Below, one piece after another: positions 6,564 to 39,329 of a stretch of DNA of 64,000 nt (positions are counted from its first letter, which is position 1; each line of letters opens with the position of its first letter). A program made the translations under genes and the position numbers. Origin of the DNA: Solirubrobacterales bacterium (GTDB lineage: Bacteria > Actinomycetota > Thermoleophilia > Solirubrobacterales > JACPNS01); NCBI GenBank assembly GCA_051306435.1, contig JBPPNF010000047.1, positions 145 to 64,144 of the forward strand. Direction: 5' to 3'. The notes under the pieces were generated by a model, which worked only from the letters and a program-made list of their open reading frames with translations, was not told the DNA's origin and ran no database searches.

Positions 6564-6572
6564 GCTGCGGAC

Positions 6573-9852: not shown

Positions 9853-9855
9853 GTC

Positions 9856-24056: not shown

Positions 24057-24884
24057 TCACCATGAATAGGCGCCCGGAACGCGGTTGGCAAGGCTCGGCA
24101 GCTTATCGCGGATCGCCGACTGCTCTGCAAAATCGAGCTCCGCTGCAACGACTGCGTCGCCCTCGTCACCGGCCCGGGCCAGCACCGTGCCCCAGGGGTC
24201 GACGATCATCGAATTGCCGTAGGAGCGGCGGTCGCCGTCGTGGTAGCCGAACTGGTTGGCGGCGACGATGAAGAGTTGGTTCTCGACCGCGCGGGCTCGC
24301 AGCAGCAGCTCCCAGTGGGCCTCGCCGGTCGTGTAGGTGAAGGCGGCGGGGACGCTCTCGATCAGGGCGCCGCGGGTCGCGAGGATCCGGCAGAGCTCGG
24401 GGAAGCGGATGTCGTAGCAAACCGTCAGGCCGATTGGCTGGCCGCCGGCGAGGTCGGTCGTGACGATCTCGTCGCCCGGGTCCTCATGGTCGGATTCTTT
24501 GTAGCTCCGGCCCGCGACCTCGACGTCAAACATGTGGATCTTGCGGTACGTCGCCCTGATCGATCCGTCGGGGCCGATGTGAACGGAGGTGTTGGCGAGC
24601 TTCTCCTGGCCCGGCACCTGCTCGACGATCGAGCCGGCGACGATGTCCAGCTGCAGTTCTTCGGCGATGCGCGCGAGCCCGGCGATCGTCGGGCCGTCGA
24701 GCGGCTCGGCGTTCTCGAAGTAGTCCTTCGTGTTGCCCATGACGTTGAACTTCTCCGGCAGGACGACCAGCTGCGCGCCTTCGCTGGCGGCTTCGCGAAC
24801 GAGCGCATGGGCGCGCTCATTGTTGTGGGCCTTGTCGGCCTGGGAGTTCATCTGGATCGCGGCCGCGATCAAGGTCTGTGGCAT
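24057..24884 (-). CDS. carbon-nitrogen hydrolase (nitrilase superfamily)
   Basis: 275 aa. Has the E-K-C catalytic context (VVLPEKF, YRKIHMFD, GLTVCYDIRFPE). Confidence 0.85.
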   Translation of the reverse strand: MPQTLIAAAIQMNSQADKAHNNERAHALVREAASEGAQLVVLPEKFNVMGNTKDYFENAEPLDGPTIAGLARIAEELQLDIVAGSIVEQVPGQEKLANTSVHIGPDGSIRATYRKIHMFDVEVAGRSYKESDHEDPGDEIVTTDLAGGQPIGLTVCYDIRFPELCRILATRGALIESVPAAFTYTTGEAHWELLLRARAVENQLFIVAANQFGYHDGDRRSYGNSMIVDPWGTVLARAGDEGDAVVAAELDFAEQSAIRDKLPSLANRVPGAYSW

Positions 24885-24893
24885 CCCGGCAGG

Positions 24894-25616
24894 CTAACCG
24901 TCTTGACGACGCCGAAGCTCCGCGACCAGCAGCTTCACATGCATGGCGCTGAGCAGATCTCGCATCGGTCCGTGCCCACGTTCAATCAGATCCGCAGCGT
25001 CATCGGCCGAGAGTTTGCCGGGCAGCTTCTCGGAGATCACGTCGACCTCGTCGCGCGCGAGGGCCTCGAGGTGGCGCATGTAGATCAGGGTGTCGTAGAT
25101 CGTGAAGCCGAGGGCTTCGCCGTAGCCGCTCTTGCGGAACCCGGAGATTGCTGTGAGGAACTCGGCATCGGGTTGGCTGTAGCGGACGCCGGCCTTGGTC
25201 TCATGCGGCTCAATCGCGCCGATGCGCTCGAATCCGTTGAGCACGTCCTCGGGCAGATCAAGCTTGGTCACCGCCTGCTTGCGCGTGATGCCCTTTCCGC
25301 TCGCGATCGCCTGTGAGCGCTGGAGCAGCACGTCGCCGAGCTCAAGCCGCGCCTCGACCTGATCGGGCTCGTTCTCGAGGATTCGCTTGATCACGTCGAG
25401 CGGCAGGTAGCGCTCTTCCTGAAGTCGCTTGATCAGCTTGATCCGGTCGACATACTCGGGCGAGTACCAGGCCATGTTGCGGCTGGTCTTGACCGGCGCG
25501 GGCAGCAGACCTTCGCGCAGGTAATGCTTGATCGTCGCGGCGGAGACTCCGCTCTGCTCGGCGAGCGCGGCCATGCGCAGGAGGCCGTCGGTGCTCGGCG
25601 TGGTGGTCCGGGTCAC
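24894..25616 (-). CDS. MerR family transcriptional regulator
   Basis: 240 aa. N-terminal HTH MAALAEQSGVSAATIKHYLREGLLP, followed by a long helical effector/dimerisation region. Its start overlaps the CoA-transferase stop by 4 nt. Confidence 0.8.
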   Translation of the reverse strand: MTRTTTPSTDGLLRMAALAEQSGVSAATIKHYLREGLLPAPVKTSRNMAWYSPEYVDRIKLIKRLQEERYLPLDVIKRILENEPDQVEARLELGDVLLQRSQAIASGKGITRKQAVTKLDLPEDVLNGFERIGAIEPHETKAGVRYSQPDAEFLTAISGFRKSGYGEALGFTIYDTLIYMRHLEALARDEVDVISEKLPGKLSADDAADLIERGHGPMRDLLSAMHVKLLVAELRRRQDG

Positions 25617-26833
25617 GACGTGGGGACTCCTGCCACGCCGGCGACGGCGCCAGATTCACGTAGCGAGGCGATTTCCTCGGCTGAGTATCCGATCGACTCA
25701 AGAACGGCATCCGTGTGCTCGCCGAATCCCGGTGCGGGCTCGCGACGGTCCGGGCGCGCGCCATCGATCACGAACGGCGGTGCGAGCTGGCCGACGGGAC
25801 CAATGCCCGGCTGGTCGACCTCAGTGACCATGCCGCGGGCCTTGACGAGATCAGATTCAAGCGCTTCGTCGATGCCCAGCACAGGTTCGATGCAGCAGTC
25901 GTGCTCGTCGTTGAAAGCGGCCCACTCCGCGCGGGTCTTCGTTTTGAAGACTTCTGCGATCACGCCCCAGCCGTCGCTGCCGGCGAGTTCGAACTGCTTC
26001 TCGATCAGATCCTCACGACCGACGCCGCGCGCGAACGCCTGCCAGAACTTCGGCTCGAGCGCTCCGCAGCTGACCCAGCCATCGGCGGCTTCATAAGGCA
26101 TGTAACAAACCCATTTGCCTGCGAGGTCGACGTCGCCGCGTTCTCGGGCGTCGCCGGCCAGCGCGGCGGCGGCCGGCATTGCCAGCCAGCTCAAAGCGCC
26201 ATCAGTCATTGAGATGTCGATTTCTGCGCCGATGCCCGTGGCGTTCTTCCTGACCAGAACGGCGAGGATCGCGATCGCGGCCATCTGCGCGCCGCCGCCG
26301 ATGTCGGCGATCTGGCCTGCGGCCTGAACCGGCGGGCCGCCCTTCGCTCCGGTCAGACCGAGCAGACCGTTCAGGCCGAGGTAATTCATGTCGTGTCCGG
26401 CGCGCAGGGTGAACGGGCCGTCCTGGCCGTATCCAGTGATCGCGCAGTAGATGACGCCCGGATTCACGGTCTTCATCTGGTCATATCCGACGTTCAGCTT
26501 GTCGAGCACGCCGGGACGAAAGGACTCAAGCACCACGTCGTGGTCGGCGACGAGCTTCAGGAGAATCTCTTTGCCGTCGTTCGACTTGAGGTCGAGCTGG
26601 ATCGACTGCTTGTTGCGGTTGAGCGCGTCGAACTGGACGCTGTGCGTGCCGCTCGCCTTTGCCGCTTCGCCGCCGGCATACGGAGTCGTCCAGCGCATGT
26701 AATCGCCCGCTCCGGTGTCTTCGACCTTCAGCACCTCTGCGCCGAGGTCGGCGAGAAGCAGTGAGCAGAACGGTCCGGGGAGCAGGCGCGAGAGGTCGAG
26801 GACTTTGACGCCCTTCAGCGGAAGATCAGACAT
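25613..26833 (-). CDS. family III CoA-transferase (CaiB/BaiF/racemase family)
   Basis: Start at ATG 26833 (MSDLPLKGVKVLDLSRLLPGPFCSLLLADLGAEVLKVE, the canonical family III N-terminus). 406 aa. Confidence 0.85.
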   Translation of the reverse strand: MSDLPLKGVKVLDLSRLLPGPFCSLLLADLGAEVLKVEDTGAGDYMRWTTPYAGGEAAKASGTHSVQFDALNRNKQSIQLDLKSNDGKEILLKLVADHDVVLESFRPGVLDKLNVGYDQMKTVNPGVIYCAITGYGQDGPFTLRAGHDMNYLGLNGLLGLTGAKGGPPVQAAGQIADIGGGAQMAAIAILAVLVRKNATGIGAEIDISMTDGALSWLAMPAAAALAGDARERGDVDLAGKWVCYMPYEAADGWVSCGALEPKFWQAFARGVGREDLIEKQFELAGSDGWGVIAEVFKTKTRAEWAAFNDEHDCCIEPVLGIDEALESDLVKARGMVTEVDQPGIGPVGQLAPPFVIDGARPDRREPAPGFGEHTDAVLESIGYSAEEIASLRESGAVAGVAGVPTS

Positions 26834-27719
26834 TGCGCGGCACTCCAAGCAGTTCGCGGGCTTCGGCGATCGTCGCGACCTTGCGGCCACCGGCCTCGAT
26901 CTGGCGCGCGGCTTCCTCGCAGAGGTCGCCGTTGCCCTTGCAGACGTCGCCGTTGGGCAGATAGAAGTTGTCTTCCAGACCAACACGGACGTTGCCGCCT
27001 TCGGCGATCGCGACGGGAACCAGATCCCACTGCTCGCGCGAGACGCCGACCATGCCCCAGTTGTTCACGCCATCGCCGCCGTGCCCGCCGGGCTGCGGAA
27101 CCTGACTCGCCATGTGCTTGAGGTTCTCCGGGCGCGCCGGGGTACCGCCAAGTACTCCCGTCACGAGCGAGATCTGCAGCGGCGACTCGAGAATTCCCAT
27201 GTCGATCAGCGGCTCGAGCGAGGCCAGGTGCCCCAGCTCGAAGCACTCGTGCTCGGGGCGGATGCCGTATTCGTTCATCGCAGTCAGGAACTGGATGATC
27301 GTGTCGAAGCTGTTCTCGAAGATGAAGCCGAAGATGAACTCTTTGCGACGCTTGGAGTACTTCGCATAGTTCATCGAGCCCATGTTCAGGGCCGCGATGT
27401 CGGGGCGGATCGCCTCGAGATACTCGAGGCGCTTCTCTACGGAGAGGCCGACCGCGCCGGTCGAGAAGTTGATGATCACGTCGCCGCATTCGGCCTTGAT
27501 CGCGTCGGTGATCTCGCGGTAATTCTCAATCTCGAAGCTCGGCGTTCCGTCGTGCTTGCGCGCGTGGATGTGGATCATCGCCGCGCCGGCGTCGACCGCG
27601 CTGCGCGCTTCGGCTGCGTACTCCTCCGGCGTATAGGGAATTGCCGGGTGTTGCTCCTTGTTGGCAACCACTCCGCTGATCGAGTTGGTGAGGATGCACG
27701 GCTTGTCAAATCCCGACAT
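26826..27719 (-). CDS. beta-keto acid cleavage enzyme family protein (BKACE/DUF849)
   Basis: Start at ATG 27719. PCILTNSISGV, IPYTPEEYAAEARSAVDAGAAMIHIHAR and RVGLEDN match the Kce-like TIM-barrel family with its Zn-binding HxH. Overlaps the CoA-transferase start by 8 nt. Confidence 0.8.
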   Translation of the reverse strand: MSGFDKPCILTNSISGVVANKEQHPAIPYTPEEYAAEARSAVDAGAAMIHIHARKHDGTPSFEIENYREITDAIKAECGDVIINFSTGAVGLSVEKRLEYLEAIRPDIAALNMGSMNYAKYSKRRKEFIFGFIFENSFDTIIQFLTAMNEYGIRPEHECFELGHLASLEPLIDMGILESPLQISLVTGVLGGTPARPENLKHMASQVPQPGGHGGDGVNNWGMVGVSREQWDLVPVAIAEGGNVRVGLEDNFYLPNGDVCKGNGDLCEEAARQIEAGGRKVATIAEARELLGVPRNV

Positions 27720-27732
27720 CAAGCGCTCCTTT

Positions 27733-27755
27733 GCTGCGCACCTCAGGTGTGCAAC
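27733..27755. promoter_or_regulatory. box 1: GCTGCGCACC-TCA-GGTGTGCAAC
   Basis: 10-3-10 inverted repeat with 2 arm mismatches. Lies 13 nt upstream of the BKACE start codon. Confidence 0.6.
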
Positions 27756-27796
27756 GAGAATTGTCAATGAAAAATGGCTTGTTCAAGGGGGTTGTT

Positions 27797-27819
27797 GCTG
27801 CACACCTCTGGTGAGCAGC
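27797..27819. promoter_or_regulatory. box 2: GCTGCACACC-TCT-GGTGAGCAGC
   Basis: 10-3-10 inverted repeat with 1 arm mismatch. Confidence 0.6.
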
Positions 27820-27889
27820 AGTTTGGCCATGGCCTGCTTCGCGGAGGCGGCCGTACGGCTGGTCGGTTGCGACCGCGGAGCCAAAACCC

Positions 27890-27912
27890 GCTGCACACCG
27901 GAGGTGTGCAGC
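27890..27912. promoter_or_regulatory. box 3: GCTGCACACC-GGA-GGTGTGCAGC
   Basis: Perfect 10-3-10 inverted repeat. Confidence 0.65.
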
Positions 27913-27953
27913 ACCGGACCGCATACCTAAGCCATTCTTGGCCGCAGGATCGT

Positions 27954-27976
27954 CCAGTTCACCAGAGGTGTGCAGC
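27954..27976. promoter_or_regulatory. box 4: CCAGTTCACC-AGA-GGTGTGCAGC (degenerate left arm)
   Basis: The right arm is identical to consensus. The left arm is degenerate (4 of 10 positions differ from consensus). Lies 16 nt downstream of the carboxyltransferase stop. Confidence 0.5.
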
Positions 27977-27992
27977 AGATAATCAAATCCGC

Positions 27993-29573
27993 TCATACAG
28001 GCATCACTCCGTGCTTCTTGTCCGGGCGGTCGACGTGCTTGTTCTCGGCCATCTCGAGGGCGCGGATGATGTGGTGGCGCGTCTCGCGTGGGTCGATCAC
28101 GTCGTCGATCATGCCGTTGCCGGCTGCGAGGTAGACGTCGATCATCTTCTGGGCCTCGGCGAGCAGTTCCTCGCGTTTGGCCTCGGGGTCCTCGGCGGCT
28201 TCGATGATCGAGCGACCGATGATGTTCACCGCGCCTTCGGCACCCATCACGCTGATCTCGGCGGTCGGCCATGCGTAGATTGCGTCCGGCTCATAGCCCG
28301 AGCCGTTCATCACGTAGTAGCCAGCGCCGTAACACTTGCGGATCAGGATCGTGACCTTCGGGACCGTCGCACGCGAGGTCGCGTACAAGAACTTCGCGCC
28401 GTGGCGGATGATCCCGGCCTCCTCGACCTTGCTGCCGACCATGAATCCGGGAACGTCCTGGAGATAGATCAGCGGGATTCCATACGCGTCGCAGAGGTTG
28501 ATGAAGCGTGCGGCCTTGTCGGCGGAGTCGTTGTCGAGGATTCCGCCCAGGTGCTTGGGCTGGTTTGCGACGATGCCGACGCTGCGGCCGTCCATCCGCG
28601 CGAAGCAGGTGATGATCGACTTCGCCCACTTCCCCTTCATGTCGAAGTACTCACCGTCGTCGACGATGTGCTTGATGATCTCGTACATGTCGTAGGGCTG
28701 CCGGCTGCTCTCGGGCAGGATGCTGAGCAGCTCTTCCGCGTGGCGGTTGACCGGGTCCTCGGTCGCCTTGATCGGCGGCTTCTCGCCGCTGTGCATCGGC
28801 ATGTAGGAGAGGTAGTCCTTGATCGACTGGATGCACTCGGCGTCGTCGCCACACTCCATGTCGGCGACGCCGCTCTTGCGGTTGTGAACCTTGTAGCCAC
28901 CGATCTCTTCGTCGGTGACGTCCTCGCCGGTTGCGGCCTTGACGAGGTGCGATCCGGCCAGCGCCATCGAGCCCTGGCCCTTGACCATCGGCAGAAAGTC
29001 GGTGAGCGCCGGGACATACGCGGTGCCGGCCGCGCACGGCCCCATGACTGCCGCGACCTGCGGGATGACCCCGCTCATCGTCACCTGTTCGCGGAAGAGG
29101 TGACCGGAGCCGGCGAACAACGATCCGACCGCTTCCTGAATGCGCGCGCCAGCCGAGTCGAGCAGCCAGATCATCGGCATGCGCTTGTTCAGGGCGAGTG
29201 CGCGCAGGCGGGAAAGCTTGACCTCGCCGGTGTAGCCCATCGATCCCGCCATCACGGTGAAGTCGTAGGCACCGACGCAGACCAGGCGGCCGTTGACCCG
29301 GCCGTAGCCGGTGATGACGCCGTCGGCCGGGGCGTCCACGCCCGCGAGCGCGCGCTGCGAGAAGTGCGGGCGCCCGTGCAGGCCGAACTCGACCCAGGTT
29401 CCTTCGTCGATCAACAGCTCGACGCGCTCGCGCGCCGTGAGCTTTCCACGCTCGTGCTGCTTGGCGATCTTTGCGTCGCCGCCGCCCTTGAGGTTGTGTT
29501 CGCGCTTGGCGAGCAGCTCATCGACGAGCTCCTCCATCTGCGACTTCAATTGAGTTGCTTCAGCGTCGTTCAT
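27993..29573 (-). CDS. acyl-CoA carboxylase carboxyltransferase (beta) subunit
   Basis: 526 aa. ERGKLTARERVELLIDEGTW, DGVITGYGRVNGR, YDFTVMAGSMG, DSAGARIQE and MGPCAAGTAYVPALTDF match the PccB/AccD carboxyl-transferase pattern. Confidence 0.85.
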   Translation of the reverse strand: MNDAEATQLKSQMEELVDELLAKREHNLKGGGDAKIAKQHERGKLTARERVELLIDEGTWVEFGLHGRPHFSQRALAGVDAPADGVITGYGRVNGRLVCVGAYDFTVMAGSMGYTGEVKLSRLRALALNKRMPMIWLLDSAGARIQEAVGSLFAGSGHLFREQVTMSGVIPQVAAVMGPCAAGTAYVPALTDFLPMVKGQGSMALAGSHLVKAATGEDVTDEEIGGYKVHNRKSGVADMECGDDAECIQSIKDYLSYMPMHSGEKPPIKATEDPVNRHAEELLSILPESSRQPYDMYEIIKHIVDDGEYFDMKGKWAKSIITCFARMDGRSVGIVANQPKHLGGILDNDSADKAARFINLCDAYGIPLIYLQDVPGFMVGSKVEEAGIIRHGAKFLYATSRATVPKVTILIRKCYGAGYYVMNGSGYEPDAIYAWPTAEISVMGAEGAVNIIGRSIIEAAEDPEAKREELLAEAQKMIDVYLAAGNGMIDDVIDPRETRHHIIRALEMAENKHVDRPDKKHGVMPV

Positions 29574-29576
29574 GCC

Positions 29577-30353
29577 TTATCGGCCCTTCCAGTTGGGTTC
29601 ACGCTTCTCGAAGAACGCCATTGCGCCCTCGATTGCGTCTTCAGTTCCGAGCGCCACGGTGAACTGCGTGTGCAGGTACTCAAGGGCGCTGAAGTACGGC
29701 AGGTCCTGTTGATTGACCATCGAGTCGTGGCCGAGGCGCATCACGACGGGGGCCTTTGCTGCGAGCTTCTCCGCCCAGGCGTCCGTTGCTTCGTCGAGTT
29801 CTTCGCGCGGGACGGCCTTGTTGATCAGGCCGAAATTCACCGCCTCATCGGCAGTCATCCGCTCGCCGAGCAGCAGCATCTCGTTGACCTTCTTGCGCGG
29901 GACGTTGCGGTAGATGATCGCCATGATCATGAACGGGAAGAGCCCGATGTTGATCTCGGGCGTAGAGAACTTCGCCGCGTCGGAGGAGACGATCAGGTCA
30001 CAGGCGAGCGCCACGCCCAGCCCCCCGGCGACCACGTGACCGTTTGCCTTGCAGATCGTCGGCTTGCCGAGTTCGGCGATCGCGCGGAAGAGATCGAGAA
30101 AGCGCGTCGTGCCGTAATGCTTGTGCGCGAGTGGCACGTCCTGCGAGAAGCCGGAGAGGTCGCCGCCGGCGCTGAAGACGTCGCCCGCGCCGGTCAGTAC
30201 GGCGACGCGCACTTCCGGATCGGTCTTTGCCTTGCCGAACGCGTCGACGAGGTCGTCGAGCATCGCGTGGCTCAGCGCGTTGCGCTTGTCCGGCTGGTTG
30301 AGAGTGATCGTCGCGACCCCACCCGCGACCTCGTAAAGAATATTTTCGTACAC
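29577..30353 (-). CDS. enoyl-CoA hydratase/isomerase (crotonase) family protein
   Basis: 258 aa with a GTG start at 30353. ATITLNQPDKRNAL, VAVLTGAGDVFSAGGDL and ANGHVVAGGLGVALACD are crotonase oxyanion-hole segments. Confidence 0.85.
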   Translation of the reverse strand: MYENILYEVAGGVATITLNQPDKRNALSHAMLDDLVDAFGKAKTDPEVRVAVLTGAGDVFSAGGDLSGFSQDVPLAHKHYGTTRFLDLFRAIAELGKPTICKANGHVVAGGLGVALACDLIVSSDAAKFSTPEINIGLFPFMIMAIIYRNVPRKKVNEMLLLGERMTADEAVNFGLINKAVPREELDEATDAWAEKLAAKAPVVMRLGHDSMVNQQDLPYFSALEYLHTQFTVALGTEDAIEGAMAFFEKREPNWKGR

Positions 30354-30370
30354 GCCCGCTCCAGTAAGAA

Positions 30371-30391
30371 GTAAGAAGTTCGACTTCTCAC
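30371..30391. promoter_or_regulatory. 21-bp palindromic operator candidate, site 1: GTAAGAAGT-TCG-ACTTCTCAC
   Basis: 17 nt from the GTG start of crotonase 29577..30353. Preceded by an extra GTAAGAA direct half-repeat (30364..30370). Confidence 0.6.
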
Positions 30392-30414
30392 TCTAACGGA
30401 TCGGTTCGGTGCGC

Positions 30415-31215
30415 TCAGGGACGCGGATCGCCGGAGTCGAAAACCGGCTTCTCGCCGGCCTGCGCGGCCTCGATCGCACCCTTGAAATCATCGTGCGACT
30501 GCGCCAGCGCCATGTACGAAGAAACCATGTCGTAGTGCGTGTCGCGCGGCATCGACTCGGCTGTATGGACAGCTCGTTTGATCAGGCGCTGGGCGAGCTG
30601 CGGGCCGGCGGCGAGCTTCTCGGCCAGGGCGTAAGTGACTTCAGTGAGCTCGTCGCGCGGAACGGACTGGTTGACAAGGCCCCATTCCGCCGCCTGCTCG
30701 CCGTTGATCACTTTGCCGGTCAGGAGCAGCTCGAGCGCGCGCGCCGGTCCGACCAGGTGCGTGAGCAGCCAGGCGCCGCCGTCGCCGGGGACCAGCCCGA
30801 GATTCACGTAGGCCTCGCCGATCTTCGCCTCGTTCGCCGCGATGCGGAGATCGCACAGCAGCGCCATGTCAAACCCCGCCCCCATCGCCGCTCCGTTGAT
30901 CATCGCGATCACAGGTTGGGGCACGCGCTGGAGCGAGCGCTGAACGCGATGGACGTGGTCGCGCAGGAACTCCTTCTTGGCCAGCGGTCCTGACTCTGTC
31001 GCGAGCGTCGCGAACTCACCGCCGGCGCTGAAGGCCTTCCCGGCGCCTGTGACCACGATCGTGTGCACGGATCTGTCGGCCGCGAGCCGGTCAAGAGCGT
31101 CGGCCCATTCGTCGACGAACTCGCCGTCGAAGGCGTTGAGCCTGTCGGGCTTGTTCAGCGTCAGCGTGGCGACATGCGTCGCCGCGTCGACCTCGGTGAG
31201 GATCACATCGGACAT
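30415..31215 (-). CDS. enoyl-CoA hydratase/isomerase (crotonase) family protein
   Basis: Start at ATG 31215 (MSDVILTEVDAATHVATLTLNKPDRLNAF). VVTGAGKAFSAGGEF and INGAAMGAGFDMALLCD. Confidence 0.85.
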   Translation of the reverse strand: MSDVILTEVDAATHVATLTLNKPDRLNAFDGEFVDEWADALDRLAADRSVHTIVVTGAGKAFSAGGEFATLATESGPLAKKEFLRDHVHRVQRSLQRVPQPVIAMINGAAMGAGFDMALLCDLRIAANEAKIGEAYVNLGLVPGDGGAWLLTHLVGPARALELLLTGKVINGEQAAEWGLVNQSVPRDELTEVTYALAEKLAAGPQLAQRLIKRAVHTAESMPRDTHYDMVSSYMALAQSHDDFKGAIEAAQAGEKPVFDSGDPRP

Positions 31216-31289: not shown

Positions 31290-31967
31290 ATGGCTGGAGA
31301 GATAGTCGAGTTCGCGTCCAATGGCGGCACCGCCGAGGGGTACCTGGCAACGCCCGAAACACCAAATGGCAAAGCCCTGGTCGTGATCCAGGAGTGGTGG
31401 GGTCTCGTCGACGAGATCAAGGGCATCGCCGATCGCTATGCAGACGCCGGCTACTACGCCCTGGTACCGGACCACTTCCATGGCAACTCGACCGAACAGC
31501 CCGACGAGGCCGAGCAGCAGATGATGGCCATGAACGTCTCCGAGACCGAGAAGGAACTGATCGGCGCGGTTGACTTCATCGCAGAGAAGGCCGGCACCGA
31601 AATCGTCGGCGCGACGGGCTACTGCATCGGCGGGGCCCTGTGCCTGTTTGCCGCTGCGCTGAACCCAAAGGTCGCAGCGAGCTCGAGCTTCTATTATGTC
31701 TTCCCACACGGCAAGCCCGAATGGAGCAAGATCGCGGGACCGGTGCTGATGCACTTCGGAACCGAGGACGCCTTCATTTCGGCCAGCGACATCGAGGCCC
31801 TGACCTCGGAGATGAAAGAAGCTGGCGTGGAACTCGTCGTCGAGTCCTACGAAGGAGCCGGGCACGCCTTCTGCAACACCGCCAACCGCCTCGGCACCTA
31901 CAACGAAGAATACGCCGAGCTGGCCTTCGCGCGCAATCTCGAGTTCTTTGACAAAAACCTCGGCTGA
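31290..31967 (+). CDS. dienelactone hydrolase family protein
   Basis: 225 aa. ALVVIQEWWGL, nucleophile elbow GYCIGG and C-terminal GAGHAF are typical DLH features. Confidence 0.8.
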   Translation: MAGEIVEFASNGGTAEGYLATPETPNGKALVVIQEWWGLVDEIKGIADRYADAGYYALVPDHFHGNSTEQPDEAEQQMMAMNVSETEKELIGAVDFIAEKAGTEIVGATGYCIGGALCLFAAALNPKVAASSSFYYVFPHGKPEWSKIAGPVLMHFGTEDAFISASDIEALTSEMKEAGVELVVESYEGAGHAFCNTANRLGTYNEEYAELAFARNLEFFDKNLG

Positions 31968-31989
31968 ACCGGTCGCTAGATTCGCGCCC

Positions 31990-32538
31990 ATGGCGCGGAG
32001 CATTGCCAAATCACTGGCGGCGGCACTTCTGGCTGGCGCGCTGCTGGCCGGATGCGGCGGCGGGGATCAGTCCTTCACCACGCCGACCTACCCGTTCAGC
32101 TTCGACTACCCCGCAGGCTGGAGGCTCTCGCGCGGCGCCAACTTCACCTACGGCTCGAGCGATGCCGCGGTGCGCTCGGTCTCGGCTGCGCTCAAAGAGC
32201 CGTACGACCAGGTGACGATCACGCAGTACAAGCTGAAGAAGACCCTGCCGGCCGGCACCAACGGCTACCAGCCCGAGGTCGACCGCATCGTCGCGCGTCT
32301 GACCAAACAGGCCGGCGGCAGCGCAGGCGACGCGAAGGTTGTGAAATACGGCGGGCAGCCCGGCTACCGGTACGTCGTCGAGTACCCGGGCGGCAACAAC
32401 CTCACGCTCGAGAACAAGCTGACCTTCCTGTTCAAGGGTCAGTACGAGTTTCAGGTCAACTGTCAGTCGTCCAAAGAGAATCGCGAAGCCCTGAATGAGG
32501 GCTGCGATCAAATTCTCGATTCGCTGAAGTTCAAGTAG
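31990..32538 (+). CDS. lipoprotein of unknown function
   Basis: Start at ATG 31990. Lipobox LLAGC followed by GGGD. No catalytic motif recognised. Confidence 0.55.
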   Translation: MARSIAKSLAAALLAGALLAGCGGGDQSFTTPTYPFSFDYPAGWRLSRGANFTYGSSDAAVRSVSAALKEPYDQVTITQYKLKKTLPAGTNGYQPEVDRIVARLTKQAGGSAGDAKVVKYGGQPGYRYVVEYPGGNNLTLENKLTFLFKGQYEFQVNCQSSKENREALNEGCDQILDSLKFK

Positions 32539-32542
32539 GCAG

Positions 32543-34663
32543 TTACTTGATGCTGCTCCAAGGTCCGTTGCCTTCGCGGTATTCGATCGCGCTGACCTTG
32601 AGATTGTTCGGCGGCCCGGTGCCGCGCTTGAGCTTGTAGGTCTCGGATGTCACGCCTGCGGCCGTCGCGAACGTAAAGATCGCGCTCGGCCCCGGCGAGG
32701 CCGTATACATCTTGCCGCTCTCGGCTTTGACGAGAACCGGTCCCCGCATGGCCTTCGCGACGATCCGCACCCGCCCCGGCTTCGCGGACCAGATCTTCAC
32801 GGTGAGCGACGTGTCGACGAGCCCGTCGCGCACATTGCGACCGCCGACCATCGACAATACTTGCGCAGGTGCTCGAGCGACCATCAGCGTTGACGAGATC
32901 CCGGTGTTCGGGTGAACGCGCTTGGACTCATCCTGAAGGTGCATAGAAAATGAGTTGCTCTCGACCAACCACGCGCTCGGGACCGAGTTGCAGCCCGGCG
33001 CGCCCGACGGTAGGATCGTTCCAGCCTGCCCGGTGTGGAAAAGACATGTCGGCGAGTACACCACGTGCGAATCGATCGGGCGCACCGGAGACACGTAGGC
33101 GCGGTTGAGGTTCGGGTTCCAGAACTCCGTTTCATAGAAGGTCGTCGGATCGGCGTCGGACGGCAGCAGCATCGCCACTTGCTGCGGCGTTGCGCGACTG
33201 ACCCAGTTCAGCGGCGTCGGTTCACGGACGCGCGCCGAGTCGGAGTAGAGCTGTTGGTAGGACCACGCCTTCGCCTGGCTGATCAGCAGGATGAAGAGCG
33301 GCAGAAAGACGGCAAGCGCGCGTCCGTATCGCGCGAGGTCCTCGCGACCCGCCGGGGCCACGCTCGCAACGTAACCGAGCCCCAGGACCAGCGTGAGTCC
33401 GGCCAGAACCATGCCGATGTGCGGAAGCATCCCCTCATTCGAATCCAGCAGGAAGCCCAGGTACGCCTGACCGAACGCATCAAGCGAGAACGGCACCGCC
33501 ACAGCATCGGACTGCATTCCGCTCACGATCACGACCGCGACGGCCACTGAAACTGCGGCGGCCTTCCAGGTGACCCGACCGAACGAGGCGACGAGGCCGA
33601 GAAAAAAGATCGGCCCGAGGTAGAACATGTAACGCTCGTAGAAAATGTGTAGCTCGCGCCAGTGGAGTGGATTGACCGCCGAGAACCAGGTCATCTGCAG
33701 AATGAACGCGACTGTCGCGACCAGAGCGAGCGCGACCAACGCACCGATCAGAGGATCTCGGCGATTTTCGCGCGAGCCGAACAGGGAGAATGTGGCGATC
33801 GCGGGCACGATTGCGCAGAGCAAGTAGACGTCCGCCGTGAAGGCCTTGAACCAGAACCAGATCTCTCCGACACCCGGCAGTTCGAGGGACGTGACCGAGG
33901 CATAGATCCCGAGCGACGCGCGACCACGAACGAGGACGTAAACCAGACCCAGAAGTGCGATCCCACTCAACATCGCCAGCAGAGCGCGCTGCGCGCGAAG
34001 AAACGCAATGCGCTCACCCGGCCCGCGCATCATCGCAACCAACAGGAGCGTCCCGCCAAAGATCGGCAGGAGCAACGCGAACTGCAATCGCGTGAACAGG
34101 GCAAACAGAGTGAGTGCCACCGCGAGGGCCGCAGACCTCCACCCCGGCCTTGCGAGCGCATGAATCATTCCGACAAATGCCGCGGCAGCCGCCGGATAGG
34201 CAAGGCTTTCAGTGCTGACGATCCCGGCATAGTTCAGCGCCGGGACGCTGATCGCGAAGACCGCCGCCAGCATCGCGTACTTCTGCGCGACAAACCAGCG
34301 CGCGGCCACGTAAACCGGGAAGGCGACCGCGCAGATCATCGCGGCGTTGATCGTCTTGACGACTTCGTACTGAGAGGCGACTGAATTCGCGAGCCTGAAC
34401 GCCGGCGCTATCACCACTGGGTAGAGCCAGATACCTCCACCAGTAGGAGCCCCCCGCCAGCTGAAGCCGGTCCCCGCAGCGAGACTCTTGGCCACGCCCC
34501 AGTAGAGAAATTCATCGACGAAGCGCCGCGGCGTCACGACCCCAAGCGCGAGCACAGCAATCAGAACGCTCGCGATCGCCCAGAGCGCAACAACAAACCA
34601 CAGATCGCGCCAGCGCCACCCGGGCACCTGCGCCTCCGGCTCGATCAGAGCAGGGTCTGCCAT
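32543..34663 (-). CDS. GT-C-like polytopic membrane protein (candidate polyprenyl-phosphate-sugar-dependent glycosyltransferase), paralog A
   Basis: 706 aa. Has an acidic RRFVDEFLYW motif after TM1, about 12 further TM helices, and a ~230-aa non-membrane C-terminal domain. This architecture resembles ArnT/PMT_2-type enzymes. Assignment is by architecture only. Confidence 0.5.
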   Translation of the reverse strand: MADPALIEPEAQVPGWRWRDLWFVVALWAIASVLIAVLALGVVTPRRFVDEFLYWGVAKSLAAGTGFSWRGAPTGGGIWLYPVVIAPAFRLANSVASQYEVVKTINAAMICAVAFPVYVAARWFVAQKYAMLAAVFAISVPALNYAGIVSTESLAYPAAAAAFVGMIHALARPGWRSAALAVALTLFALFTRLQFALLLPIFGGTLLLVAMMRGPGERIAFLRAQRALLAMLSGIALLGLVYVLVRGRASLGIYASVTSLELPGVGEIWFWFKAFTADVYLLCAIVPAIATFSLFGSRENRRDPLIGALVALALVATVAFILQMTWFSAVNPLHWRELHIFYERYMFYLGPIFFLGLVASFGRVTWKAAAVSVAVAVVIVSGMQSDAVAVPFSLDAFGQAYLGFLLDSNEGMLPHIGMVLAGLTLVLGLGYVASVAPAGREDLARYGRALAVFLPLFILLISQAKAWSYQQLYSDSARVREPTPLNWVSRATPQQVAMLLPSDADPTTFYETEFWNPNLNRAYVSPVRPIDSHVVYSPTCLFHTGQAGTILPSGAPGCNSVPSAWLVESNSFSMHLQDESKRVHPNTGISSTLMVARAPAQVLSMVGGRNVRDGLVDTSLTVKIWSAKPGRVRIVAKAMRGPVLVKAESGKMYTASPGPSAIFTFATAAGVTSETYKLKRGTGPPNNLKVSAIEYREGNGPWSSIK

Positions 34664-36759
34664 TTTCCGTCAGGACCCGAGACGCTCATGTCATCCACGG
34701 AGACGTCCGCCGGTAGTCCGCCCGGCGTCTTCACGGTGAAGGTCGTGTAGACCTCGTTGGCCGGCACGTCGATCGTCAGCGTGCCGCTCTTGCCCGCGTT
34801 TATGACCGTCGATCCGCCGCCCCGGGCTTTCACGACAACGCTTGACCTGCTGGCACGCAGCTTCAAACGCAGCTTGCCGGGCTTGTCGAGGAAGGTGCGC
34901 GTGTTCAGAGCGTTCTGCACGATGCCGGTGCGCACTGCTCGTCCGTCCACCAGCGACAGAATGCGTGGCGGCGGCTCGCCGACCATCAGAGTGAGCGTGG
35001 GCCACGACGTCGACGGGTGCACGCGCTTGACCTCGTCCTTCAGGTGCATCGTCACCGTGTCGCTGCGCAGATACCAGGCGTTGGGCACGGTGTCGCAGCC
35101 GGTGCCGAGGATCTCGCCGGTCTCTGACCAGTCGAACTTGCAGTTCGGCGAGTACATGACCGGAGAGACGATCGGCTTCGCATCCGTTGCGAACGCGCGC
35201 ACCACGCGGTTGTTCCAGAACTCGGTAGTGAAGTACGAGAGCGGATCATCGGTCGAGGTGACAATCATCCCGACTTCTTCATCGGTGTTTTTGTCGATGA
35301 AGTTGGCGGGCTTGGGGAACTGCTCGAAGGCCTGTGTCGAGTACTTCCGCGCGTCGTTCCAGGTCTTCACCTGCGCCTGCACGAGCCAGACGAACGTGAA
35401 GGCGATCAGCACCCAGTAGAGGATCTTCCTCACCAGTTTGTGGTCGATCGTCGAGAGCACGTAGACCAGACCGACAAGCAGCGTGACGCGGGCGAGCGTC
35501 ATGCCGATCTTCGGCGCGACGTCGGGGTGCGTGCTCATGTAACTGGCGATCGTGGTCAGGCCGAACGAGTCGTACGAGAACGGCACGAGCACGGCATCTG
35601 TCTGGAAACCGCTGACGATCGCGGTCGCCGCCGCTACGGACACGAGCGCGGAGGTCCAGGAGACGCGGTTCCACGACGCGACAAGGCCGAGGAAGAAGAT
35701 CGGCCCGAGGTAGAACATGTAGCGCTCGTAGAAGATGTGCCGCGTGCGCCACTGGTACGGGTTGGTCGCCGAGAACCAGGAGATCTGCGCGATGAAGAAG
35801 AGTGACGCCATCACCGCGAGCGCGAGCAGCGCACCGATCAGTGGATCGCGGCGGTTCTCGGCTCGTCCGAACATCGCCATCGTCGCGATCACCGGGACGA
35901 TTCCGCAGAGCAGATAGACGTCCGCCGTGAAGGCCTTGACCCAGAACCAGAGCGCCGAGAATTCAAGCGCGACGCCGTCGAAGACGCCCTGGTAGAGCCC
36001 GAATGCGCCCTTGCCCTGGGCGAGAATCGCGATGCTGCCGAGCACCCCGAGCACAGCGATCGTGAGCCATACCGAGCGCCGTTCTTTGAGGTACCGCGTG
36101 CGGCTGCCGGGCTCGGCCATCAGTGCCGCGAGCAGCAACGTGCCGAGGAAGATCGGCAGCAGCACGACAAACTGCGTGCGGGCGAGCATCGCCAGAACGA
36201 TCATCGCGAAGGCAAGCAACGTGTTGCGCGGCCGCGGCCGCGCCAGCGCGAGCAGGACCGCTCCGCAGGCGGCGGTGAAGATGAAGTAGCCGAGGTTCTC
36301 CGTGCCGATGATTCCCGCGTAGTTCATCGCCGGTACCGAAACGACGAGAATCGCCACGACCAGCGCGCGCCAGCGGTCCAGGTAGAGGCGCCCGAGCAGG
36401 TAGGCAGGGAAGATCGTTCCGACGATCATCATCGAGTTGATCAGGTGCACGCCGGTGTACTGACCCGGCACCGTCTTGGCAAACCAGAACGCCGGAGCGA
36501 GCAACATCGGGTAGAGCGTGCTGCGCATGTTCAGGTCTGCGCCGCGCCAGGTCATGCCGTCGCCGCCGGCCCAGTTCTTGCCCAGCGCCCAGAAGAGGAA
36601 CTCGTCCTGGTAGCGACGCGGCGATTCATGGCCGGTCGCAAGCAGGTAGATGATCACCGTGAGCAGAGCCCAGATGCCGGTGATGATCCAAAGCTCAAAG
36701 CCGCGTTCGCGCAGCCAGGCGCCGGCGTCGCTGCGCCATTCTGCAAAGTTCGCTTTCAC
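34645..36759 (-). CDS. GT-C-like polytopic membrane protein, paralog B
   Basis: 704 aa. Has RRYQDEFLFW after TM1 and shares long identical blocks with paralog A (IFYERYMFYLGPIFFLGLVAS, KAFTADVYLLC). Its stop overlaps the paralog A start by 19 nt. Confidence 0.5.
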   Translation of the reverse strand: MKANFAEWRSDAGAWLRERGFELWIITGIWALLTVIIYLLATGHESPRRYQDEFLFWALGKNWAGGDGMTWRGADLNMRSTLYPMLLAPAFWFAKTVPGQYTGVHLINSMMIVGTIFPAYLLGRLYLDRWRALVVAILVVSVPAMNYAGIIGTENLGYFIFTAACGAVLLALARPRPRNTLLAFAMIVLAMLARTQFVVLLPIFLGTLLLAALMAEPGSRTRYLKERRSVWLTIAVLGVLGSIAILAQGKGAFGLYQGVFDGVALEFSALWFWVKAFTADVYLLCGIVPVIATMAMFGRAENRRDPLIGALLALAVMASLFFIAQISWFSATNPYQWRTRHIFYERYMFYLGPIFFLGLVASWNRVSWTSALVSVAAATAIVSGFQTDAVLVPFSYDSFGLTTIASYMSTHPDVAPKIGMTLARVTLLVGLVYVLSTIDHKLVRKILYWVLIAFTFVWLVQAQVKTWNDARKYSTQAFEQFPKPANFIDKNTDEEVGMIVTSTDDPLSYFTTEFWNNRVVRAFATDAKPIVSPVMYSPNCKFDWSETGEILGTGCDTVPNAWYLRSDTVTMHLKDEVKRVHPSTSWPTLTLMVGEPPPRILSLVDGRAVRTGIVQNALNTRTFLDKPGKLRLKLRASRSSVVVKARGGGSTVINAGKSGTLTIDVPANEVYTTFTVKTPGGLPADVSVDDMSVSGPDGKWQTLL

Positions 36760-36815: not shown

Positions 36816-36836
36816 GTGAGAACTAGGACTTCTTAC
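36816..36836. promoter_or_regulatory. 21-bp palindromic operator candidate, site 2: GTGAGAACT-AGG-ACTTCTTAC
   Basis: 40 nt upstream of the acyl-CoA dehydrogenase ATG. Inverted orientation relative to site 1, with a flanking TTTCCAC (the complement of the extra half-repeat). Confidence 0.55.
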
Positions 36837-38269: not shown

Positions 38270-38290
38270 GTAAGAAGTTCCACATCTCAC
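38270..38290. promoter_or_regulatory. 21-bp palindromic operator candidate, site 3: GTAAGAAGT-TCC-ACATCTCAC
   Basis: 89 nt upstream of the SDR ATG. Preceded by GAGAA (a partial extra half-repeat). Confidence 0.55.
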
Positions 38291-38379: not shown

Positions 38380-39225
38380 ATGAGTGACCTCGTCATTCCC
38401 GGTCTGCTTGAAGGCAAGACCGCCATCGTCACCGGTTCGGCCCGCGGCATCGGCCGCTCCACCGCAGAGCTGCTCGCAGGCTCAGGCGCAAACGTTCTGA
38501 TCACCGACCTCGACGGCGACATCGCAGAGCAGGCTTCTGGCGAGATCGCCGGCAACACCGTCTCGATCGGCGGCGACATCACCAAGAACGGCGAGCCCGC
38601 CAACATCGTCAAGAAGGCGATCGATGAGTTCGGCCAGATCGACATCCTGATCAACAACGCCGGCTACACCTGGGACGGCCCGGTCCACAAGATCACGGAC
38701 GAGCAGTGGGACGCAATGCTCAACGTCCACGTCAAGGCCCCCTTCCAGATGATCCGCGAAGCCGCCCCCTACTTCCGCGAGCCGGCCAAGGCTGAGCGCG
38801 CAGAGGGCAAGGAAGTCTTCCGCAAGATCGTCAACGTGTCTTCGACTTCCGGAATGTTCGGCAACGCCGGTCAGGCCAACTACAGCTCCGGCAAGCTCGG
38901 CGTCGTCGGTCTGACCAAGACTGTCGCCAAGGAGTGGGGTCAGTTCAAGGTCAATGTCAACGCAGTCGCTTTCGGTTTCGTCGACACGCGCCTGACGGCC
39001 GCCAAGGAAGAGGCAGAGACGATCGAGCGTGACGGCGAGCAGATTCAGCTCGGTATCCCGGAGCAGATGCGCCAGATGGCGAACATGATGATTCCGCTCG
39101 GCCGCCCGGCAACCCCTGAAGAGGCCGCTGCGCCGGTCTACTTCCTGGCAAGCCCGCTCTCCAACTACGTGCACGGTCAGGTGCTCAACATCACCGGCGG
39201 CATGTTCGGCGGTATGGCGTTCTAG
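38380..39225 (+). CDS. SDR family oxidoreductase (FabG-like)
   Basis: 281 aa. TGSARGIG cofactor motif, NNAG, and the catalytic YSSGK (YxxxK). Confidence 0.9.
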   Translation: MSDLVIPGLLEGKTAIVTGSARGIGRSTAELLAGSGANVLITDLDGDIAEQASGEIAGNTVSIGGDITKNGEPANIVKKAIDEFGQIDILINNAGYTWDGPVHKITDEQWDAMLNVHVKAPFQMIREAAPYFREPAKAERAEGKEVFRKIVNVSSTSGMFGNAGQANYSSGKLGVVGLTKTVAKEWGQFKVNVNAVAFGFVDTRLTAAKEEAETIERDGEQIQLGIPEQMRQMANMMIPLGRPATPEEAAAPVYFLASPLSNYVHGQVLNITGGMFGGMAF

Positions 39226-39261
39226 TTCGCCAGTTGCTGCTCGAAGTTCCAGGCAGTTATC

Positions 39262-39298: not shown

Positions 39299-39329
39299 TG
39301 CCCTCCGGCCGTGGGCATAGATTTCGGCC

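Follow-up and report, generated by a model that had tools for sequence, protein, structure and literature searches.

[quoted passage not shown] An earlier note on the window (the whole 64,000-nucleotide stretch of Solirubrobacterales DNA under study) described these seven genes as a cluster that maps to no canonical pathway and may form an undescribed catabolic route. The cluster is found to be a genuine, strongly syntenic, and uncharacterized acyl-CoA catabolic unit. At slightly better than an even chance, it represents a MerR-controlled regulon for leucine/isovalerate-type branched acyl-CoAs, which would be liu-like, built from nonorthologous parts, and dependent on a noncanonical carboxylase.

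Organization of the gene cluster

Open reading frames and independent gene calls on identical metagenome contigs place all seven genes on the minus strand, and their Pfam assignments lie far above the cutoffs. Crotonase A (positions 30415 to 31215; 266 amino acids [aa]; Pfam ECH_1) precedes crotonase B (29577 to 30353; 258 aa; ECH_1, 213 bits), which is separated by 3 nt from the gene for the CT beta subunit (27993 to 29573; 526 aa; Carboxyl_trans, 552 bits). The BKACE gene (26826 to 27719; 297 aa) overlaps that of the CoA-transferase (25613 to 26833; 406 aa) by 8 nt, and the latter overlaps by 4 nt the gene for MerR (24894 to 25616; 240 aa with a long C-terminal domain; MerR_1, 85 bits), past which the Nit-like CN-hydrolase gene (24057 to 24884; 275 aa; CN_hydrolase) starts after 9 nt. 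The gene content and couplings are, in this respect, as the earlier note had described them, as is the lack of a biotin carboxylase (BC) or HMG-CoA lyase gene within the seven-gene cluster; a 70-aa biotinyl protein is encoded at about 43266 to 43478. None of the cluster's enzymes reaches an NCBIfam equivalog cutoff.

The 273-nt gap between the CT and BKACE genes is filled by a single copy of a dispersed repeat (27733 to 27976) with four TGCACACCnnnGGTGTGCA boxes, which occurs at about 12 to 13 loci across the genome with identical box spacing and which contains a terminator-like hairpin (27889 to 27913). The corresponding gap is only 9 nt in close relatives, including relative L012, from which the repeat is absent. 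The separation of CT from BKACE by a repeat bearing such a hairpin counts against a leucine-type regulon.

Conserved core and lineage-specific neighbors

The core gene order, in which an acyl-CoA dehydrogenase (ACAD) gene is divergent from crotonase B-CT-BKACE-CoA-transferase-MerR, is conserved in approximately 80 species-level Solirubrobacterales genomes at 55 to 90% identity. Crotonase B is syntenic with CT in nearly all loci, and the crotonase B-CT-BKACE trio is kept in other actinobacterial classes too; linkage of the CoA-transferase to BKACE is confined to the Thermoleophilia. The loss of synteny that the earlier note had named as an argument against its proposal was not observed, since the BKACE-CT linkage persists across actinobacterial classes.

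Two of the seven genes lie outside this core. Crotonase A, which sits upstream of the first operator site described below, was present in only three of the 80 relatives (L012, L013, and L018) and is a lineage-specific neighbor. The CN-hydrolase, a regional or lineage-specific neighbor, is located 1 to 8 kb from MerR in most relatives, with other genes intervening, and its sequence looks like that of a Nit1-type housekeeping enzyme, with scores of 184 and 157 bits that fall below the respective cutoffs (500 and 355) of the deaminated-glutathione amidase equivalogs. The genes and couplings are therefore as proposed, and the core is syntenic, but the seven genes are not a single unit, crotonase A and the CN-hydrolase being neighbors of the core. 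Because the CN-hydrolase is external to the conserved unit, the amide or N-carbamoyl intermediate formerly suggested is without basis.

A common operator and the MerR regulon

A 21-bp palindrome has three genome-wide matches (2.3 Mb) with at most one mismatch. Site 1 (GTAAGAAGTTCGACTTCTCAC; 30371 to 30391) lies 17 nt upstream of crotonase B, site 2 (36816 to 36836) lies 40 nt upstream of the ACAD gene (36877 to 38058, plus strand; 393 aa; Pfam ACAD N, M, and C domains), and site 3 (38270 to 38290) lies 89 nt upstream of a gene encoding a short-chain dehydrogenase (SDR; 38380 to 39225, plus strand; 281 aa; adh_short). Among relatives, the palindrome precedes ACAD, crotonase B, CT, or BKACE, even where these genes are split apart; it is confined to loci that encode MerR and absent from every MerR-less locus. 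MerR is likely the repressor or sensor of this regulon, with its direction of regulation presumed.

ACAD is a regulon member, being divergent from crotonase B in most relatives, where adjoining orthologs share 63 to 86% identity. When the canonical isovaleryl-CoA dehydrogenase from a liu cluster of the same order is compared with the genome, ACAD is the best match, at an identity of only 40%, which counts against a leucine-type substrate. SDR is a probable member: in many relatives, its orthologs (63 to 70% identity) lie no more than about 7 kb from the cluster, a looser linkage than that of the core genes, and its gene is followed by a lactonase-like MBL gene.

Identity of the carboxyltransferase

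In comparisons with PDB entries, CT scored 460 to 500 bits against proteins of the PCC/12S type, 294 bits against MCC, and at most 150 bits against GcdA (294 bits for Pseudomonas aeruginosa MCC beta versus 500 bits for PCC). The reference MCC beta subunit was verified by its score of 905 bits to the AccD1 structure 4q0g. Phylogenetic analysis placed CT in a clade of its own (support, 95/88), sister to PCC/ACC and outside the MCC/GCC clade (AccD1, LiuB, and MCCC2 being of the MCC beta type), from which it is separated by a branch of 2.67. PccB, AccD5, and the 12S transcarboxylase thus represent its most similar characterized proteins, with about 45% identity and equal two-domain length, and this overall proximity to PCC/12S rather than MCC counts against a leucine-type role.

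The specificity loop, YGAGYYVM.G..YEPD (YGAGYYVM(C/N)G(R/K)AYEPD in orthologs), nevertheless differs from the GGAY[D/I/C] loop of the PCC/ACC beta subunits (PccB, AccD5, and AccD6): it reads GAGYY, with Tyr where the specificity Asp would be and with Gly and Ala in swapped order. A GAG.Y.M.G..Y.P pattern is common to the CT loop and verified MCC beta subunits (MCC loop, SYGAGNYSMCGRAYSPRF); despite this likeness, a 63-aa loop segment used as a query ranked PCC/12S proteins first, and the GAG.Y loop, which is also present in other uncharacterized CT lineages, is not MCC specific. On sequence grounds, CT is assigned to a distinct clade that is neither housekeeping PccB nor canonical MCC beta. 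A function equivalent to that of MCC beta is proposed for it.

The genome encodes three CTs: the one under study, a true PccB on contig C40 (711 bits to Streptomyces coelicolor PccB), and an ACC-like protein on contig C12 with Ile at the specificity position. No MCC/GCC-type CT was found among these three. The presence of a separate PccB bears out the earlier view that the cluster's CT is not the housekeeping PccB. That CT had also been termed an orphan, and it does lack an adjacent BC gene within the cluster; such an arrangement is ordinary for this genome, in which a single BC-BCCP alpha subunit, encoded on C40, serves all three CT genes. Adjacency of BC to CT was seen only in other actinobacterial classes, in two loci of which a 440-aa BC is encoded directly upstream of crotonase B-CT, making a function of CT as a decarboxylase unlikely.

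Crotonase B, BKACE, and the family III CoA-transferase

The best solved match of crotonase B is the 3-hydroxypropionyl-CoA dehydratase 5zai, whose GGLELALACD segment aligns with GGLGVALACD. Crotonase B therefore departs from the classical two-glutamate enoyl-CoA hydratases, the first catalytic Glu being replaced by Gly in the protein itself and in 22 of 22 orthologs; the second (PE) is kept in nearly all. The loss of one hydratase glutamate counts against a leucine-type function.

BKACE, the sole member of its family in the genome, belongs clearly to PF05853 (302 bits; cutoff, 24.8), and its orthologs (at least 46% identity) are well separated from paralogs (at most 39%). The zinc and catalytic residues H50, H52, S86, N112, E156/E158, R245, E249, and D250 (HxH and R...ED), at positions that we take to correspond to the Kce numbering, are invariant in 16 orthologs. 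Characterized BKACEs (Kce, Paracoccus BKACE15 [PDB 8RIO], and the 3-oxoadipate and 3,5-dioxohexanoate enzymes) have the same fold family, zinc, and catalytic residues, and the reaction expected here is alike, namely, conversion of a beta-keto acid and acetyl-CoA to an acyl-CoA and acetoacetate; identity is, however, only about 35 to 40%, and scores of 239, 213, and 196 bits fall below the equivalog cutoffs (382, 430, and 350, respectively) of the Kce, 3-oxoadipate, and 3,5-dioxohexanoate models. The literature searched yielded no example of a BKACE gene in such a context, beside those of a carboxylase and a crotonase.

The CoA-transferase, the only copy in the genome, matches PF02515 (CoA_transf_3) with 337 bits and falls far below the cutoff of every equivalog. 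Its best solved matches are formyl-CoA transferase (193 bits), the Mycobacterium tuberculosis Far racemase (190 bits), and succinate-hydroxymethylglutarate CoA-transferase (187 bits), so that, to judge from these similarities, it may be a racemase instead of a transferase. We infer the roles of both BKACE and this enzyme.

Phyletic distribution

Among 301 Actinomycetota genomes, the CT clade occurs in 53 and MCC/GCC-type CTs occur in 100, with only 3 genomes possessing both. A homolog of HMG-CoA lyase is present in 145 genomes (87 with the MCC/GCC type only, 38 with the CT clade only, 3 with both, and 17 with neither), and the 156 genomes devoid of it include 10 with the MCC/GCC type and 12 with the CT clade. 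The two CT types are almost mutually exclusive and each co-occurs with HMG-CoA lyase, a pattern that Fisher tests overstate because related genomes are nonindependent. In two families (f2 and f3), all genomes with the lyase carry either one CT type or the other, never both, and MCC/GCC-type genomes of the same order harbor a classical ACAD-HMGCL-BC-MCCbeta cluster without the CT-BKACE module. The phyletic pattern of CT, therefore, follows that of MCC and not that of PCC. In the genome under study, the lyase is encoded on contig C46 (NCBIfam NF004283, 358 bits; cutoff, 246), adjoining an acetate/acetoacetate-CoA-ligase-like gene. A genome-wide palindrome search found no operator near the lyase gene or that of the alpha subunit. 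Two aspects of the distribution count against a leucine-type reading: about a quarter of the CT-clade genomes have no HMG-CoA lyase homolog, and one CT-retaining family lacks BKACE in roughly half of its members.

Proposed pathway and comparison with known systems

As the genes present, the type of regulator, and the phyletic pattern agree, with the lyase being encoded elsewhere, the cluster is best read as a variant of the liu system (liuRABCDE of Pseudomonas and AccD1-AccA1 of actinobacteria). The assertion that it maps to no known pathway was too strong. In the proposed route, for which every substrate named is a predicted one, ACAD would oxidize a branched acyl-CoA to a 3-methyl-2-enoyl-CoA, which CT, together with the only BC-BCCP alpha subunit encoded in the genome, would carboxylate, a task performed elsewhere by MCC beta. 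Crotonase B would then convert the carboxylated product toward HMG-CoA, and the HMG-CoA lyase from the other contig would release acetoacetate and acetyl-CoA. BKACE may cleave a related free beta-keto acid with acetyl-CoA to yield an acyl-CoA and acetoacetate, and the CoA-transferase may activate the acetoacetate or else a dicarboxylate such as hydroxymethylglutarate. No role for BKACE is evident with leucine itself, since the reaction of acetoacetate with acetyl-CoA would be a null reaction, and this too counts against the leucine-type reading.

The likeness to liu comprises a MerR-type regulator, an ACAD, and a CT beside a crotonase, together with the biotin-dependent carboxylation, acetoacetate end product, and CoA-activating enzyme as proposed, and it extends to equal co-occurrence with HMG-CoA lyase and to the classical cluster carried by module-less genomes of the same order. 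The full liu architecture, in which a single regulated cluster encodes isovaleryl-CoA dehydrogenase, MCC alpha and beta, hydratase, and HMG-CoA lyase, was, however, not found: CT is of another clade, the genes for the alpha subunit and lyase lie at other loci, one catalytic Glu is lacking from the crotonase, ACAD is not a canonical isovaleryl-CoA dehydrogenase, BKACE and the family III CoA-transferase are additional, and the MerR protein, of 240 aa, possesses an extra C-terminal domain. In the acyclic terpene utilization (Atu) pathway, which employs geranyl-CoA carboxylase, a beta-methyl branch is carboxylated, the product is hydrated by an adjacent crotonase, and a lyase acts thereafter (PMC4097962). 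The logic of these steps is equal to that proposed here, whereas a GCC-type CT and other atu genes are absent; the involvement of longer branched substrates is a speculative extension.

Alternative substrates

A regulon for another, nonleucine short-chain substrate, such as a beta-hydroxy or beta-keto acid or a lactone, is considered rather unlikely. SDR would form a beta-keto acid, which BKACE would convert to an acyl-CoA and acetoacetate, followed by ACAD, crotonase, and an alpha-carboxylating CT. The typical pairing of a dehydrogenase with BKACE in BKACE pathways is in line with this route, as are the operator upstream of SDR and its lactonase-like neighbor, the overall PCC-like character of CT, and the tight BKACE-CT linkage across classes. 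Such a route would nonetheless leave both the near-exclusivity with MCC/GCC-type CTs and the co-occurrence with HMG-CoA lyase unexplained, and it is at odds with the canonical PccB encoded elsewhere in the genome and with an SDR gene that is less tightly linked than the core.

A C3 route appears distinctly less plausible, and we regard it as doubtful. ACAD and crotonase B would interconvert propionyl-CoA, acryloyl-CoA, and 3-hydroxypropionyl-CoA, CT would act on propionyl- or acetyl-CoA, and BKACE would cleave malonate semialdehyde with acetyl-CoA to formyl-CoA and acetoacetate, the CoA being passed on by the formyl-CoA-transferase-like enzyme. The matches invoked for it, i.e., those of crotonase B to 3-hydroxypropionyl-CoA dehydratase, of ACAD to the acryloyl-CoA reductase AcrC (its best NCBIfam match, below the cutoff), and of the CoA-transferase to formyl-CoA transferases, are subthreshold family resemblances, and one catalytic Glu of the dehydratase is lacking from crotonase B. 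Cleavage of malonate semialdehyde was seen in vitro for more than 20 of the 124 BKACEs assayed, yet this reaction is described as new-to-nature (PMC11961710). PccB, moreover, is encoded separately, and neither the complementarity with MCC nor the linkage to HMG-CoA lyase is predicted by a C3 route.

It is very improbable that the seven genes together make up a single route for a beta-keto substrate of amide or N-carbamoyl type derived from an amino acid, with the CN-hydrolase in the pathway and CT as a decarboxylase: the short distance between the MerR and CN-hydrolase genes and the best NCBIfam match of BKACE, the lysine-fermentation Kce (below the cutoff), are outweighed by the separate location of the Nit1-like CN-hydrolase in most relatives, the BC gene adjoining CT in other classes, and a conserved unit without aminomutase or aminotransferase genes.

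The liu-like regulon for branched acyl-CoAs, therefore, remains the favored interpretation. The gene set itself is real and is widely conserved among soil actinobacteria, and its CT clade represents a previously unrecognized branch of biotin carboxylase.

Gene content and conservation

The minus-strand interval from 24057 to 31215 encodes seven genes of high third-position GC content, and separate gene calling on three metagenome contigs of identical sequence yielded the same set. Their products correspond, with scores far above the Pfam cut-offs, to two crotonases (crotonase A, 30415 to 31215; crotonase B, 29577 to 30353), a carboxyltransferase (CT; 27993 to 29573), a zinc enzyme for beta-keto acid cleavage (BKACE; 26826 to 27719), a family III CoA-transferase (25613 to 26833), a MerR family regulator (24894 to 25616), and a CN-hydrolase (24057 to 24884); none of the seven proteins reached an NCBIfam equivalog cut-off. 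The tight coupling reported in the earlier note, namely, a 3-nt gap between crotonase B and CT and overlaps of 8 nt and 4 nt across BKACE, CoA-transferase, and MerR, was found as described. The host, a member of the Solirubrobacterales (class Thermoleophilia), is represented by a 2.3-Mb genome which is 96% complete.

The window proteins were mapped onto 80 species-level relatives gathered via BKACE alignment, among which the order crotonase B-CT-BKACE-CoA-transferase-MerR recurs nearly everywhere (45 to 95% identity), usually with one or two divergent acyl-CoA dehydrogenase (ACAD) genes upstream of these core genes. The module is also present in a genome of Conexibacter, a genus with cultured members (locus L084). 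Crotonase A is confined to three close relatives, while the CN-hydrolase is located 1 to 8 kb downstream in most genomes, with P450, DUF2804, or TetR genes intervening. The CN-hydrolase, together with DegV, AI-2E transporter, and holin-like genes, is a sign of regional synteny and not of membership in an operon, and the amide intermediate which had been proposed on account of the CN-hydrolase loses its basis, as this gene lies outside the conserved unit. In the window, the insertion of crotonase A, of a gene for a dienelactone hydrolase, and of two genes for large membrane proteins has displaced the ACAD gene (36877 to 38058, plus strand) by approximately 6 kb. The segment between crotonase A and ACAD (31290 to 36759), which encodes the dienelactone hydrolase, a small lipoprotein-like product, and two tandem multi-pass membrane proteins of approximately 705 amino acids, splits the divergent ACAD/crotonase B layout typical of most relatives.

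Small variable genes interrupt the CT-BKACE or the BKACE-CoA-transferase junction in certain relatives (loci L014 and L015, approximately 9006 to 10004; locus L102, 6007 to 6420), the products observed being an alcohol dehydrogenase of the zinc type and a redoxin resembling AhpC/TSA. In classes other than Thermoleophilia, the trio of crotonase B, CT, and BKACE occupies a conserved neighborhood (loci L096 and L110, approximately 2300 to 6000; loci L100, L106, and L110, downstream of BKACE), being flanked on one side by paired Mur-ligase and D-Ala-D-Ala-ligase-like genes together with one for an ECF-type sigma factor and on the other by a PdtaS-type histidine kinase. The corresponding sigH-pdtaS region of Mycobacterium tuberculosis presumably harbors an orphan 7-kDa biotinyl protein.

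The 273-nt gap between CT and BKACE contains four TGCACACCnnnGGTGTGCA boxes, which were ruled out as an operator because they constitute one copy of a dispersed repeat. This intergenic repeat of approximately 240 bp (27733 to 27976 in the window) consists of three or four TGCACACCnnnGGTGTGCA palindromes at spacings near 64, 93, and 64 nt, and the same box spacing is found at approximately 12 to 13 loci of the 2.3-Mb genome, the other copies being located on contigs C4, C6 (two loci), C10, C24 (two loci), C34, C36, C40, C46, and C50. One box followed by a T-run forms a terminator-like hairpin resembling an intrinsic terminator. The gap measures only 9 nt in a relative at 82% identity. The repeat has the character of a MITE or of a REP-type element, and the gap itself is not regulatory.

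A palindromic operator associated with MerR

The 21-bp palindrome GT(A/G)AGAAGTnnnACTTCT(C/T)AC has exactly three matches in the genome at one mismatch or fewer, positioned 17 nt before crotonase B (site 1), 40 nt before ACAD (site 2), and 89 nt before a short-chain dehydrogenase (SDR) gene at 38380 to 39225 on the plus strand (site 3). Among relatives, the consensus GTAGGAAGTnnnACTTCCTAC is located in the ACAD/crotonase B intergenic region and, where insertions part the genes, additional copies directly precede CT or BKACE. The density of the motif in loci containing MerR is approximately 17 times the genome-wide value, and the motif was found in no locus without MerR, including those of other classes and of same-order genomes with a classical liu cluster. 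Because the motif is confined to MerR-bearing loci, MerR is likely its cognate regulator. Judged by its placement with respect to a possible TAGAGT −10 box, the operator resembles a repressor site more than a classical MerR spacer site. Orthology of MerR to LiuR was considered and dropped, since literature searches yielded no LiuR motif usable for comparison; LiuR of Streptomyces is a TetR-family protein.

Downstream of site 3 (38380 to 40229), the SDR gene is accompanied by a gene for a homologue of the AttM-like lactonases of the metallo-beta-lactamase fold, a hint that the regulon may be supplied with a lactone or a hydroxy acid.

The carboxyltransferase represents a distinct clade

The genome encodes three CTs and a single alpha subunit combining biotin carboxylase (BC) and BCCP. 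Typing of the two paralogues ruled out a housekeeping PCC or ACC role for the window CT: that on contig C40 is a genuine PccB (711 bits to PccB of S. coelicolor), while that on contig C12 resembles ACC and carries Ile at the specificity position. Taken as a whole, the window CT resembles PCC, with scores of 500 bits to PCC, 294 bits to MCC (3-methylcrotonyl-CoA carboxylase), and at most 150 bits to GcdA. In a maximum-likelihood tree, the MCC reference of which was verified by a score of 905 bits to AccD1, it forms a clade of its own with 24 orthologues (support 95/88), sister to PCC/ACC and far from MCC/GCC. This clade is compact, collapsing to essentially two representative clusters at 50% clustering.

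All orthologues share the specificity loop RK(A/G/C)YGAGYYVM(C/N)G(R/K)AYEPD, the YGAGYYVM core of which differs from the PCC/ACC loop YGGAY(D/I/C)VM and from the MCC loop YGAGNYSMCGRAYSPRF. The loop shows what is predicted to be a non-PCC pocket but does not prove MCC function. Its use as such proof was downgraded because the 63-amino-acid loop segment ranks PCC/12S first and the GAG.Y pattern also occurs in several other uncharacterized CT lineages.

The earlier note had raised a decarboxylase role for the CT, which is unlikely. In two other actinobacterial classes, a 440-amino-acid BC without a BCCP domain is encoded immediately upstream of crotonase B and CT, which argues that the CT is part of a predicted ATP-dependent carboxylase rather than a decarboxylase; a GcdA-type enzyme was ruled out by this adjacent BC gene and by the GcdA score. 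As this BC carries no BCCP domain, a free biotinyl carrier may be its partner. A stand-alone biotinyl protein of this kind, 70 amino acids in length with an ESMKME motif, is encoded in the window (43266 to 43478), followed by a crotonase (43539 to 44360) with methylmalonyl-CoA decarboxylase as its second-best NCBIfam match, below the cut-off; both genes are located just upstream of bio genes.

Among solved structures, crotonase B matches 3-hydroxypropionyl-CoA dehydratase best. Gly takes the place of this enzyme's first catalytic glutamate in crotonase B and in 22 of 22 orthologues, while the second is present in nearly all. Crotonase B may act as an atypical hydratase, possibly with the carboxylate of the substrate itself assisting, or as an isomerase.

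Phyletic distribution and a proposed non-canonical MCC module

A total of 301 Actinomycetota genomes were profiled for four markers, namely, orthologues of the window BKACE (at least 46% identity, versus at most 39% for paralogues), orthologues of the window CT (at least 51% versus at most 49%), a verified MCC beta subunit, and the HMG-CoA lyase of the present genome. The CT clade was detected in 53 genomes and an MCC/GCC-type CT in 100, with both present in only three, all of one family; the statistics of this profile are inflated by the relatedness of the genomes, yet the switch between the two types is also seen within families. In family f2, two genomes carry the CT clade and three the MCC/GCC type, and the one genome devoid of both is lyase-negative as well; in family f3, the corresponding numbers are three and one. 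Among the 145 lyase-positive genomes, 87 possess the MCC/GCC type only, 38 the CT clade only, 3 both, and 17 neither, while the 156 lyase-negative genomes include 10 with the MCC/GCC type and 12 with the CT clade. Same-order genomes with the MCC/GCC type harbor a textbook ACAD-HMG-CoA lyase-BC-MCC beta cluster and are devoid of the module described here.

In the present genome, no MCC/GCC-type CT was found, nor was a close orthologue of the canonical liu-cluster ACAD, the best match to which (40%) is the window ACAD. A bona fide HMG-CoA lyase, scoring above the NCBIfam cut-off, is encoded on contig C46, and the absence of a 21-bp operator copy near it places it outside the MerR regulon. Its neighbors in the interval 4514 to 8254 of this contig are an acetate/acetoacetate-CoA-ligase-like gene on one flank and, on the other, a small gene without an NCBIfam match, whose product is possibly of the hotdog fold.

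The most economical reading of these data is that the CT clade, crotonase B, and the regulon ACAD supply HMG-CoA, thus representing a non-canonical MCC module. A beta-keto-acid route unrelated to leucine would accommodate the SDR and lactonase-like genes under operator site 3 and is a less probable alternative. A C3 route, acting on propionate or 3-hydroxypropionate, derives only from best matches below threshold and does not predict the MCC/lyase pattern.

The system would operate in the manner of the liu pathway but departs from it in several defining features: its CT belongs to a different clade, one catalytic glutamate of the two is missing from its crotonase, its alpha subunit and lyase are encoded elsewhere, and BKACE and the family III CoA-transferase are additional. 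In the literature searched, no paper connects BKACE with either methylcrotonyl-CoA carboxylase or the gene context described here. New evidence comes from the link between operator and MerR, the BC gene found adjacent in other classes, the clade and the loop of the CT, the glutamate missing from crotonase B, and the three-way phyletic profile.

Possible roles of BKACE and the CoA-transferase

BKACE is the only such gene product of the genome and retains all zinc-binding and catalytic positions. It is linked to CT in 44 of the 53 CT-clade genomes; because it is missing in about half of one family (f18), in which a small unrelated ORF alone fills the gap, it looks like an accessory step. Replacement of HMG-CoA lyase by BKACE found no support: the present genome encodes both, and the distribution of BKACE does not follow the absence of the lyase. 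The published BKACE mechanism is one of acyl exchange and not of HMG-CoA-type cleavage. Leucine offers no obvious substrate for the enzyme, since the combination of acetoacetate with acetyl-CoA is a null reaction. The closest characterized relatives of the window BKACE use neutral or hydrophobic beta-keto acids (PMC11961710).

The CoA-transferase, which accompanies BKACE in Thermoleophilia only, is closest to formyl-CoA transferase and succinate-hydroxymethylglutarate CoA-transferase. Plausible roles include the activation of acetoacetate released by the lyase and BKACE or that of free hydroxymethylglutarate or 3-methylglutaconate.

It is conceivable, if rather improbable, that the carboxylase, crotonase B, HMG-CoA lyase, and BKACE form a generalized pathway for beta-methyl branch removal. 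Any 3-methyl-2-enoyl-CoA, R-C(CH3)=CH-CO-SCoA, would be carboxylated and then hydrated, and HMG-CoA-lyase-type cleavage of the longer 3-hydroxy-3-alkylglutaryl-CoAs would yield acetyl-CoA and a free beta-keto acid, R-CO-CH2-COO-, which BKACE would re-capture with acetyl-CoA to give R-CO-SCoA and acetoacetate. The net outcome would be the exit of a four-carbon isoprene-head unit as acetoacetate at no extra ATP cost, with leucine representing the special case of R = CH3 in which BKACE is not needed. Such a scheme would account both for the tie of BKACE to the carboxylase and for its dispensability in some lineages and, if true, would give BKACE a role in isoprenoid or branched-chain acid breakdown. 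The lyase products of the textbook Atu pathway are, however, assigned as acetate and 3-oxoacyl-CoA (PMC4097962), and this reading is therefore speculative.

Implications

If the reading of a non-canonical MCC module holds, a whole branch of the Actinomycetota, comprising Thermoleophilia and several other classes of largely uncultured soil and water bacteria, would perform leucine-type catabolism with a carboxylase annotated as "propionyl-CoA carboxylase beta," and metabolic reconstructions of these abundant bacteria would be wrong at the carboxylase step. It would also define a third functional lineage among the acyl-CoA carboxyltransferases and provide a natural case in which MCC has been displaced by a paralogue. 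For the BKACE family, which is large and mostly unassigned, the genomic setting described here is new and very common, offering a clear set of partners that can be tested as well as a defined operator/regulator pair.
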